A stretch of DNA of 64,000 nt from a virus. Taxonomy: Duplodnaviria > Caudoviricetes. The stretch spans positions 3,109-67,108 of IMG/VR virus record IMGVR_UViG_3300046779_001541; one strand, 5' to 3'. Under the pieces are notes generated by a model that made no database searches, was not told the origin of the DNA, and worked only from the letters and a program-made list of their open reading frames with translations. The translations under genes were made by a program, and so were the position numbers. Position 1 is the stretch's first letter. Each line of letters begins with the position of its first letter. Below are positions 34,106 to 49,769 of this stretch, in pieces.

Positions 34106-34768
34106 ATGTCTAAACCTTATTATGACGTATTGATTGCTACCCCTGGCGCATTAATGCACTCAGCGTATACGCAGAGTCTAGTTGAAACAACTGCATGGCT
34201 AAACTCTAAAGGTCTCACTTACAGATGGCTAAATAAGTCTGGGTCGTTGGTATCCACTACTCGTGAATTGACTGCATTAGATAGCTACTCGCCTGATTGG
34301 TCTGCCAACGAGATTGGTAGAGGTGAATACAATTACGGAAAAATAATTTGGATCGACTCTGATATTGAGTGGACCGTAGAAGATTTCGAGAAAATCTATA
34401 ACAGTGACCTAGATATTGTTGGCGGTCTATACCAGACCCACCCTAACGGCAGAGTCGCAGCTGCTTTCTTTGATGAGAATGGTCTACCTAAGGCAGCAGT
34501 GGAATCAGACTTTATTTTGTATGACGAGCCAATTGCTATGTACGGACTGGGCTTTGGCTTTATTGCCATGAAGTCTGGTGTGTTCGAGGCTTGCGATAGG
34601 CCTTGGTTCCTGATGGAACGAATTAAGTGGCCTCACCTAGAGTTTGAGCTTAATGTTGGCGAGGACTATTCTTTCTGTATAAATGCAAGAAGAAATGGCT
34701 ACTCGACATATGTTGATCCAACTGTTAAGCTTAAGCACCACAAAGAAACAATCTACGAACTCAGATAG
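34106..34768 (+). CDS. GT-A-fold glycosyltransferase-like protein, related to 2296..3069
   Basis: IATPG, WIDSD (DxD), GFGFIAMKSGVFE, GEDYSFC, VDP...H.K. Confidence 0.7.
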   Translation: MSKPYYDVLIATPGALMHSAYTQSLVETTAWLNSKGLTYRWLNKSGSLVSTTRELTALDSYSPDWSANEIGRGEYNYGKIIWIDSDIEWTVEDFEKIYNSDLDIVGGLYQTHPNGRVAAAFFDENGLPKAAVESDFILYDEPIAMYGLGFGFIAMKSGVFEACDRPWFLMERIKWPHLEFELNVGEDYSFCINARRNGYSTYVDPTVKLKHHKETIYELR

Positions 34769-34774
34769 GTAATC

Positions 34775-34903
34775 ATGGCAAAGGGTAAGGGTGGAGCTCC
34801 AGCTCCTCAGAAGACAACTACTGACCGTAAGAACGGTAAGGCCTCGAAGAAGCGCCCAAAGGTCTGGAGCGCTGAGAAGCGTCGTCTAGTTACTGACAAA
34901 TAA
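34775..34903 (+). CDS. 42-aa Lys/Arg-rich peptide (not in the ORF track)
   Basis: MAKGKGGAPAPQKTTTDRKNGKASKKRPKVWSAEKRRLVTDK; AGGT upstream. Confidence 0.65.
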   Translation: MAKGKGGAPAPQKTTTDRKNGKASKKRPKVWSAEKRRLVTDK

Positions 34904-35004
34904 GCTATAATAGATTCGGGTTGATGCTGTCTCTTATGATGGCTACTTGCAAGATCAACCTCCCGACAGTCGGGCGAATCCGAAGGGGCGATATCCTCGG
35001 TCCA

Positions 35005-35087
35005 GGGCTGCGCTACTTGACCATCGCGAATAGAGTAGTGAGAGGTGCACCGTATGGTGTTGCCGAGGTGCGATTCCTCTCAGTCCA
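35005..35087 (+). ncRNA. tRNA-like cloverleaf 1 (no canonical anticodon loop)
   Basis: GGGCTG/CAGTCC-A acceptor-like stem with a G3.U pair, CGCTACT/AGTAGTG arm, GCACC-GTAT-GGTGT arm, T-arm GAGG-TGCGATT-CCTC. Confidence 0.5.
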
Positions 35088-35183
35088 CGAAGCAAGGCCT
35101 AGTACGGCGTGTGGGAGACTACACATTTAGTCCCCTAGGTTTGCTCCATCAAGGATTGGTCTCCCGCGTACGCGAAACGACTA

Positions 35184-35261
35184 GGACCAGCCCCGTCTGA
35201 CGGGGACAAGGTGCAGATGCTTAAGTAAATCTGCTAGTGGGTGCAAATCCCATCTGGTCTA
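35184..35261 (+). ncRNA. tRNA-like cloverleaf 2 (10-nt anticodon-position loop)
   Basis: GGACCAG/CTGGTCT-A, CCCCGT-CTG-ACGGGG, GCAGAT-GCTTAAGTAA-ATCTGC, GTGGG-TGCAAAT-CCCAT. Confidence 0.55.
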
Positions 35262-35454
35262 CGCAAGGCAGAGGTCTGAACAACTTTTGTGACTGCTGAC
35301 TACATCCGAAGCCTACCCTGGCGGAGTGATAGTGCGAAAGTCTGGAACCCGTTCAGGGGTGGAAAGTACAGCGACCGTCTAGGATGTAGAGCCCTCGGGA
35401 ATAGTTCCGAACCGCAGTAATCGGTGACCACGGAGGGCTTATAACTAAATACAA

Positions 35455-35785
35455 GGGCCTGACTGGTTTCGACAGTGAAACTTAAGTCGGTGAAGCAAGC
35501 AGAGAAGCCTGTACCTCTTAAATCGGGCAACGCAATAAATGCAAACTCACGTTCAGCATTCGCACTAGCAGCCTAAAAACTGCTAGACGCCCCTAACAAA
35601 GCACTAGTTCTAGGTGGGCAGTTAGGTTTTAAATAAGTAGAACGCCCGCACCACGTCCATGCTGGAGACGTAAAACTGAAGCACCAGGAGATGTGGCAGT
35701 GCAGTCTCCGAAATATTCACTGCCTAAGCTTGTAGAAGAACGATGGAACTTTCATTGGACGCGGGTTCAATTCCCGCCAGGTCCA
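35455..35785 (+). ncRNA. ssrA: tmRNA, tag peptide ANSRSAFALAA
   Basis: 5' GGGCCTGACTGGTTTCGAC; acceptor GGGCCTG/CAGGTCC with G3.U70 and discriminator A; T-arm GCGGG-TTCAATT-CCCGC; tag ORF GCA...GCC TAA at 35541-35576. Confidence 0.95.
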
Positions 35786-36373
35786 CTACTCCGCGATGAA
35801 GTCTAGCCATATGTCTTCATCGTATGGCCGATCTAACTCAAAGTTTCTGAAGAAGATAATCACATTGGTGCGCTTTCCGCTGAGCACCTCTCGAACTCCG
35901 TGAAGATTTTCGGCATTCCCTCTAAACATGATTAAATCTCCAGCCTCTAATCTGACTTCAACCCCGTGGTGTTCGAAATACAGCTCTCCGCCAGAATAGT
36001 CACTGTTAAGCATCAAAATACAGGAGTAATGCTCTTCTATTGTCATCTTCCCTGGATAAACATCCCCGTCATCGTCGTGAGGCTTATTTATTGCGCCCGT
36101 ATCCATAATGTTTCCGAACAACCTTTTTAATTCAAATCGGTTGTAGGTGAAAGTGTAGTTTTCTTTGAATGTTTTGTTAGCTACCTTTAAGGCTCTTCTT
36201 ATGGGTGCCACTTCGGATGGTACATCTCCAGCTAAAATGTCGTACAAAAGAATGCCAGAATGCCTATAATTATCACGGTGGTCCGCTTGAGAGTTACTGT
36301 CTATGTACCTTGCCAGAGCGGCACACTCTTCTTCAGATAGAACATTTTTCTCTAAGTAATATATCTCTGGCAT
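35786..36373 (-). CDS. Fe(II)/2OG oxygenase, close paralog of 39512..40066
   Basis: PHDD...MLNSDYSGGELYF...NLHGV...GKR. Confidence 0.9.
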   Translation of the reverse strand: MPEIYYLEKNVLSEEECAALARYIDSNSQADHRDNYRHSGILLYDILAGDVPSEVAPIRRALKVANKTFKENYTFTYNRFELKRLFGNIMDTGAINKPHDDDGDVYPGKMTIEEHYSCILMLNSDYSGGELYFEHHGVEVRLEAGDLIMFRGNAENLHGVREVLSGKRTNVIIFFRNFELDRPYDEDIWLDFIAE

Positions 36374-49686: not shown

Positions 49687-49769
49687 GGAGCTATAGTGTT
49701 AGGGGTAGCACGCGGAGGTCTGAATGCAGGACATAATCCGAAGCCCTGGTTCGAATCCAGGTAGCTCAT
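49687..49769 (+). tRNA. Gln-type tRNA scaffold with an expanded (about 18-nt) anticodon loop
   Basis: GGAGCTA/TAGCTCA (1:72 mismatch), GTGT/GCAC D-stem, CGGA/TCCG enclosing GGTCTGAATGCAGGACATAA, CCTGG-TTCGAAT-CCAGG. Confidence 0.7.

Follow-up and report, generated by a model that had tools for sequence, protein, structure and literature searches.

What lies in the 528 nt located between a small basic ORF and a tmRNA gene in the genome of an uncultured virus? The source record is a contig of 67 kb, about 51% complete. It encodes a ribonucleotide reductase and many 2OG-Fe oxygenases, as well as four to five tRNAs and a one-piece tmRNA. The stretch of it analysed here, 64,000 nt long, is called the window, and coordinates refer to the window unless a related locus is named. 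The ORF occupies 34775-34903 and the tmRNA 35455-35788, and the region between them has a G+C content of 0.51-0.57, compared to 0.39-0.48 in the flanks. An earlier note, made from the sequence alone, had seen no credible ORF in it, and the ORFs of 69, 51 and 76 aa found there have no PHROG match. The same note had left open whether the region encodes a new or divergent large RNA or a polycistronic precursor of several small RNAs. Comparison with related loci favours the latter: 34918-35439 is probably a head-to-tail array of five small structured-RNA cassettes, lying between the promoter and the leader of the tmRNA, which would be transcribed together and cleaved from one precursor.

Cassettes and promoter upstream of the tmRNA

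Related viral loci were collected by an exact scan with the tmRNA 3' end (12 loci) and by alignment of the small ORF (80 further loci). Ten others with genuine homologs came from a metagenome scan and from pattern scans (L110, L115, L116, L118, L120, L121, L124, L126, L130 and L131); among the metagenome pattern hits, five of ten for cassette C and one of three for cassette A1 (L129) were chance matches. The neighbouring 220-aa protein, used as a query in the first search for relatives, found none. BLAST and covariance-model searches over roughly 130 related phage and metagenome loci divide 34918-35439 into five cassettes with sharp borders, which abut without any spacer. All lie on the + strand, in the order A1 (34918-35004), A2 (35005-35088), A3 (35089-35183), B (35184-35261) and C (35262-35439). 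Four of the five cassettes (A1, A2, B and C) turn up again on other contigs, where their combinations and positions differ; A3 is an orphan, and none of the roughly 130 loci contains all five together. For example, the stretch shared by the window and locus L007 is limited to 35262-35445, that is C and the start of the leader, and L007 has a normal tRNA-Asn in place of B. The cassette borders, the independent conservation of four cassettes, the covariation in A1, B and C, and the coincidence of the promoter position with that of the relatives' tmRNA promoter are what the comparison shows.

The earlier note had described a TATAAT box 6 nt before an 8-bp helix. The box is found at 34906-34911 (+ strand), followed by AGATTC and then by the helix GGGTTGAT (34918-34925) / ATCAACCT (34954-34961); no -35 box accompanies it. 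Throughout the window, exactly 6 nt separate the end of a TANNNT hexamer from the first start codon in 11 of the 57 crude ORFs, compared to 0-4 (median 1) at other spacings. Therefore, the start is predicted at position +7 from the end of the hexamer, G34918, which is the first base of A1, the first conserved cassette. Does this promoter belong to the region itself, as the earlier note had assumed? The same box precedes the tmRNA or its inserts in L018, L023, L016, L012 and L121; in L012 and L121 the TATAAT stands ahead of the inserts, and in relatives without inserts the box is 17 nt upstream of the tmRNA. In the minimal slot (L018/L023), GCTATAAT is followed by 5 nt, TATAACTAAATAC and then the tmRNA. 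The window has an identical GCTATAAT and an identical TATAACTAAATACAA, with 522 nt of cassettes in between. No terminator-like site was detected on the + strand of 34918-35788. Since the box keeps its position in the insert-free relatives and no terminator follows it, we take it to be the promoter of the tmRNA operon, shared by the RNA array and the tmRNA, with the cassettes situated inside the tmRNA leader. The -10-only, leaderless-type promoters across the window would fit an actinobacterial host. We note beside them that the only GenBank phage match to the RNA region is to the tmRNA of a Streptomyces phage.

The array ends at the conserved leader TATAACTAAATACAA (35440-35454, + strand), directly 5' of the mature tmRNA end, whose core AAYTAAATA is kept in 13 of 13 aligned relatives. 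The tmRNA itself (+ strand) is identified as a one-piece molecule by ARAGORN and Rfam (RF00023, 147.1 bits), with the tag ANSRSAFALAA and the acceptor GGGCCTG/CAGGTCC followed by AC. Among the relatives, the small ORF and the tmRNA are 31, 85, 272, 285, 551 (window) or 704 nt apart. Other small cassettes occupy the slot in relatives: GGAGGCACGAACG...GTGGTCGTAACTCTCC is common to L120 (5715-5830) and L126 (minus strand, about 500-640), and a hairpin around GGATTGGGA.TTCTCGATCGGG has different closing stems in L120 and L022 (L022/L026 spacer). The spacer of L012 (5341-5531) contains a lone sequence resembling the first bases of tRNA-Asn (TATCCTCTAGCC) upstream of an intact tRNA-Asn, likely a recombination scar. 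The 42-aa ORF (MAKGKGG...KKRPK...KRRLV) sits within the island of RNA genes. It has relatives in 156 viral stretches (tblastn) and no Pfam or PHROG match, and a tmRNA gene was found at most 2.5 kb from its relative in 48 of the 80 loci examined.

Searching 185,579 prokaryote genomes for exact copies of the invariant A2 and A1 ends yielded no hit. Among GenBank phage records there was no relative of the region, and the sole match was a 58-nt tmRNA stretch of Streptomyces phage Wakanda. Contigs from four freshwater or sediment metatranscriptomes cover relatives of the tmRNA (35463-35794), and one run adds a short A2-like fragment (34985-35054), the rest of the region being uncovered.

The claim that the region is structured RNA held on one kind of evidence and failed on another. 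Minimum free energies are unremarkable relative to shuffled sequences for the whole region (z -1.24), its first 268 nt (-0.59) and its last 176 nt (-0.31). Comparison with relatives, by contrast, indicates that the first helix, the cloverleaves and the long-range stems are kept by compensating changes. When folding was assessed at the true cassette borders, the scores were -0.65 for A1, -2.10 for A2, -0.81 for A3 and -3.67 for B, so that only B and A2 stand out; C folds no better than its shuffles.

A cmscan of 34700-35900 against Rfam 15, run with E up to 10 and also at the gathering threshold, returned the tmRNA, a sub-threshold tmRNA_permuted hit and chance hits only. Thus none of the families that the earlier note had considered (GOLLD, ROOL, raiA, Y RNA, RNase P and Ms1) was matched. 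The A1, B and C homologs from six other loci (E up to 0.1) and the A2 copies from three further loci (E up to 1) likewise had no Rfam family match. The sub-threshold hit is to RF04321, a model that spans only the tRNA-like domain (PMC11915505); it scores 41.2 bits at 35211-35576, below the gathering threshold of 47. Relatives lacking B score alike (39.5 and 37.7 bits), and the hit in the window therefore derives from the 5' half of the intact one-piece tmRNA, so a permuted, two-piece tmRNA was rejected. We also considered a group I intron within a tRNA-Asn, spanning A1 to B, and rejected it for want of a 5' exon and of any Rfam intron match.

A1, A3 and the tRNA look-alikes

In cassette A1 (87 nt, 34918-35004, + strand) the 8-bp closing helix encloses a small hairpin; the invariant ACTTGCAAG and another hairpin come next, and the last element is a 30-nt 3' part, also invariant, with GGTCCA at its end. 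A1 has two homologs, both inside tRNA arrays and with unrelated flanks: L131:2322-2408 (92% identity), directly followed by tRNA-Asp, and L130:6841-6927 (minus strand, 78% identity), just downstream of tRNA-Gly. Four pairs are changed on both sides, for example GGGTTGAT/ATCAACC to GGGTTAGT/GCTAACC. In the window, as in L131, a tRNA-type 5' end directly follows the terminal GGTCCA; in L130 it is followed by an apparent tRNA, judged by eye and not called. The array of L130 also contains a sub-threshold match to tRNA-Sec (L130:6141-6226, minus strand, 44.7 bits vs 47). Cassette A3 (95 nt, 35089-35183, + strand) is bounded by the conserved ends of A2 and B. The GGGAGAC and GTCTCCC sequences to which the earlier note had drawn attention are present inside it (35113-35119 and 35159-35165) and are predicted to form a long hairpin. 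No homolog of A3 was found by BLAST in the roughly 130 loci, in the whole records of eight relatives or by exact scan, so it may be a mere spacer.

The two cloverleaf domains described in the earlier note correspond to A2 (84 nt, 35005-35088) and B (78 nt, 35184-35261), both on the + strand; compensating changes preserve the two folds in homologs. In A2, an anticodon-less tRNA look-alike, the acceptor GGGCTG/CAGTCC precedes AC, the first arm is long, a tetraloop hairpin occupies the position of the anticodon arm and the T-loop is TGCGATT; in its consensus fold, a 7-bp acceptor and a T arm close the cloverleaf. Nine copies occur in eight contigs, with 80-87% identity and unrelated flanks, and in all relatives with a mapped tmRNA they lie downstream of it (L042, L051 with two copies, L065, L104 and L106). 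In the alignment 96.6% of the cells are paired and two pairs are changed on both sides, a weak covariation due to the 93% likeness of the copies. The second look-alike, B, has GGACCAG/CTGGTCT as its acceptor, with A after it. Its first arm joins the acceptor directly, its second arm has the 10-nt loop GCTTAAGTAA and its T-loop is TGCAAAT. B is kept in the metagenome loci L121 and L124. Five substitutions, drawn from about two independent lineages, separate the copies; four fall in stems, pairing is preserved in each, two pairs are fully compensated and the 10-nt loop is unchanged. None of 200 shuffles folds as well as B.

How close are these elements to real tRNAs? Neither ARAGORN nor Rfam (RF00005) detects a tRNA at 35005-35088 or 35184-35261. 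The 7-bp acceptor and the cloverleaf-closing T arm of a canonical tRNA are found in the consensus folds of both. The 5-bp anticodon stem with a 7-nt loop is absent, its place being taken by the tetraloop hairpin in A2 and the 10-nt loop in B, and the T-loops TGCGATT and TGCAAAT depart from the canonical U54-U55-C56-R57-A58. A G at T-loop position 55 is present in all aligned copies of A2 and B, and in all but three of the related elements listed. The window A2 has G3.U70 with A73, the alanine identity; four of seven distinct A2 sequences, and B, have A3-U70. Elsewhere in the window, a weak Rfam tRNA hit (49687-49769, 34.3 bits), with no ARAGORN call, lies between tRNA-Thr and tRNA-Met.

A wider family came into view through weak hits of the A2 model: many other elements, 62-78 nt long, were found next to the tmRNA genes of the related loci. 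Most share one frame (5' GGACTG..., T-loop TGCAAAT or TGCGATT, 3' CAGTCC-AC) and have quite different interiors. In the relative L065, a near-threshold match to the manA RNA motif (RF01745; L065:4042-4211, 51.4 bits vs 55.2, E 7e-11) was seen within the RNA island, downstream of the tmRNA and of three tRNA look-alikes. GGGCCTG/CAGGTCC-AC, the acceptor stem of the phage tmRNA, is nearly reproduced by the frame of the wider elements, by that of B and by the GGGCTG/CAGTCC-AC of A2. This raises the question of whether A2 and B mimic the tRNA-like domain of tmRNA, acting in trans on trans-translation or on tRNA-directed host factors, for instance by SmpB titration or as decoys. Such a role would add a function to the array explanation and is compatible with it. 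It is favoured by the retention of the shared frame beside tmRNA genes with swapped interiors, and by the report that a TLD-only molecule inhibits tmRNA, perhaps by SmpB titration (PMC4131195, PMC11915505). Against it, the G3.U70 pair is not conserved, the tmRNA-type D-loop (UUCGAC) is absent from A2 and B, which have two extra arms, and the phage also has a full tmRNA. Furthermore, RF04321 does not bridge the tandem A2 copies in L051, and the score in the window is equalled by the relatives that lack B. We therefore consider mimicry of this kind unlikely.

Cassette C

Cassette C (178 nt, 35262-35439, + strand) is a structured RNA for which comparison defines five helical elements, all on the + strand. 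These are a hairpin, P1, with CTGAAC in its loop (35276-35281); a long-range stem, P2 (CTACATCC, 35300-35307, with GGATGTAG, 35382-35389); an inner stem formed by GGCGG (35320-35324) and CCGTC (35375-35379); a hairpin of 3 bp with GTTCAG as its loop (35351-35356); and a 3' domain, whose closing stem pairs GCCCTC (35391-35396) with GAGGGC (35433-35438). P2 and the closing stem of the 3' domain are the long-range pairings that had been noticed by eye, and both show compensating changes in homologs. Eight contigs contain C, with 71-98% identity, and the element immediately before it is in every case a tRNA or a look-alike: tRNA-Asn in L007, L118 and L120, tRNA-Asp in L126, B in the window, L121 and L124, and another look-alike in L103. 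Across the alignment 99.1% of the cells are paired, and 13 pairs are changed on both sides, compared to 3.2 +/- 1.5 in shuffles (0 of 500 reaching this number) and 0-3 in slid controls; the support comes from about four independent lineages, and part of the structure was derived from the same sequences that were counted. All three pairs of the 3-bp stem under the hexaloop GUUCAG covary, and the loops GUUCAG and CUGAAC are both invariant. Since GUUCAG is complementary to the CUGAAC in the P1 loop, a loop-loop kiss is predicted, and the two could form a kissing loop.

Two resemblances of C were rejected. A GUUCAG in the tag frame of the tmRNA could pair with the P1 loop in the same way; it is not conserved (GUUCUG in L007) and was judged a chance occurrence. 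The likeness of C to RNase P CR-I (GCGAAAGUCUGG) is not conserved in L120 and L103, and no RNase P model matches.

Might C not be a free RNA at all, serving instead as a cis-acting element of the leader that governs the folding, maturation or level of the downstream tmRNA? C stands directly before the conserved leader and tmRNA in six of the seven contigs that show its 3' side. In L103, however, it is found about 200 nt downstream of the tmRNA, and most relatives make their tmRNA without it, C being present in two of the 48 tmRNA-bearing loci of the viral collection. This makes a cis-acting role quite unlikely. Taking C as an RNA in its own right, it is tempting to speculate that it represents a class of its own among structured RNAs, compact, built around a kissing-loop core and always placed behind a tRNA-type element, possibly a ribozyme or a protein-binding RNA linked to the biology of tRNA or tmRNA. 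The look-alikes, in the same improbable scheme, would be a family built on a copied tmRNA acceptor and T-arm frame with freely exchanged interiors, used by phages against ribosome rescue or as decoys for host factors that attack tRNAs.

Proposed processing of the array and comparison with known systems

How would the cassettes be released? Most likely, transcription would start at G34918, 7 nt past the -10 box, and continue through all cassettes into the tmRNA. The tRNA-processing enzymes of the host would cut this precursor apart. For A2, B and the tmRNA, RNase P would generate each 5' end, and RNase Z or exonucleases each 3' end, after the discriminator base. Cleavage by RNase P and RNase Z of look-alikes that have G, not U, at T-loop position 55 is an assumption. 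This would yield about five small RNAs (A1, A2, A3, B and C) along with the tmRNA, and would give the tRNA look-alikes a role at least as punctuation. The spacer-free abutment of the cassettes, and the ...GGTCCA of A1 in front of tRNA-type 5' ends, fit this processing model. Co-transcription, the cleavage sites and any function in trans are what we infer beyond the observed conservation.

One could argue that the region is nothing but debris, made of decayed tRNA genes and recombination scars in a hypervariable spacer. The slot does vary from 31 to 704 nt, L012 has its apparent truncated tRNA-Asn 5' end, A3 is an orphan and the look-alikes have no anticodon loops. Debris would, however, hardly account for A1, A2, B and C, which have sharp borders and pairing kept by compensating changes at 71-92% identity in differing contexts, nor for loops that are invariant where the stems vary (GTTCAG and CTGAAC in C, GCTTAAGTAA in B), and we regard this explanation as very unlikely. 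The single structured RNA of about 530 nt with its own promoter, of the GOLLD/ROOL kind, which was the earlier note's first alternative, has in its favour a continuous, ORF-free, G+C-rich sequence adjoining RNA genes and some pairs drawn between distant parts by the minimum-energy model, and is scarcely tenable given that the parts occur separately and reordered in other contigs, with no homolog holding all five, that neither GOLLD, ROOL, raiA, RNase P, 6S nor Y RNA is matched at E up to 10, and that the whole-region z is only -1.24.

The array of cassettes bears on how such regions are read. Phage tRNA regions are usually annotated as tRNAs and spacer; here the "spacer" consists of conserved, shuffled RNA genes outside Rfam, and the covariance models R1 and R2 built in this work make the families searchable. 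If released as free RNAs, the cassettes would be candidate phage tools acting on translation, ribosome rescue or tRNA-directed defence, and a clear example of tRNA-type punctuation yielding non-tRNA RNAs.

Several known systems invite comparison. GOLLD and ROOL are phage or prophage RNAs, often near tRNA genes, and each is a single RNA of 500-800 nt, unlike the five independent cassettes of 78-178 nt described here, which have no Rfam match. The E. coli 3'ETS-leuZ is a short unstructured sponge RNA freed from a tRNA precursor by tRNA-processing nucleases, which then acts on its own. The proposed release of C from a tRNA-type precursor is similar, although C is a 178-nt RNA with multiple helices. 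The RNAC and RNAD of phage T4 are co-processed with tRNAs. These RNAs, also named species 1 and 2, are small, stable and distinct from tRNAs; they are encoded among the tRNA genes and transcribed from the tRNA region, and their role is unknown (PMC3014915). They offer a precedent for small non-tRNA RNAs among phage tRNA genes. The present array differs in lying in a tmRNA leader, in containing anticodon-less look-alikes and in the shuffling of its cassettes between phages; the two are likened by description, and no sequence relation is expected.

For processing of the look-alikes, a precedent is found in the Y RNAs: YrlA is a non-coding RNA with a tRNA-like module, and that of M. smegmatis is cut by RNase P and receives CCA (PMC4201824). 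Membership of the Y RNAs was rejected, since no Ro60/TROVE gene (PF05731) was matched in the 67-kb, about 51% complete record and no Rfam Y RNA model matches; a GNCGAA motif was not seen by eye. From IMG/VR, 8,495 unnamed candidate RNAs have been predicted (PMC10690425), which may or may not include A1, A2, B and C. The closest published counterpart of the look-alikes is the CDS-less, "TLD-only" tmRNA of mycobacteriophage DS6A, a short RNA that does not decode and whose acceptor and T arm resemble those of tmRNA (PMC4131195, PMC11915505). The likeness lies in the acceptor stem, which A2 and B copy from tmRNA. The DS6A type has a stemless D-loop and no extra arms, whereas A2 and B have a first arm of 6-7 bp, attached directly to the acceptor, in addition to a second arm. 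They also lack a tmRNA-type D-loop, have G55, vary at the 3:70 pair and are matched by no tmRNA model. Families A1, A2, B and C, which are in no Rfam model, belong to a kind that is already known, the small RNAs and tRNA mimics of phage tRNA regions.
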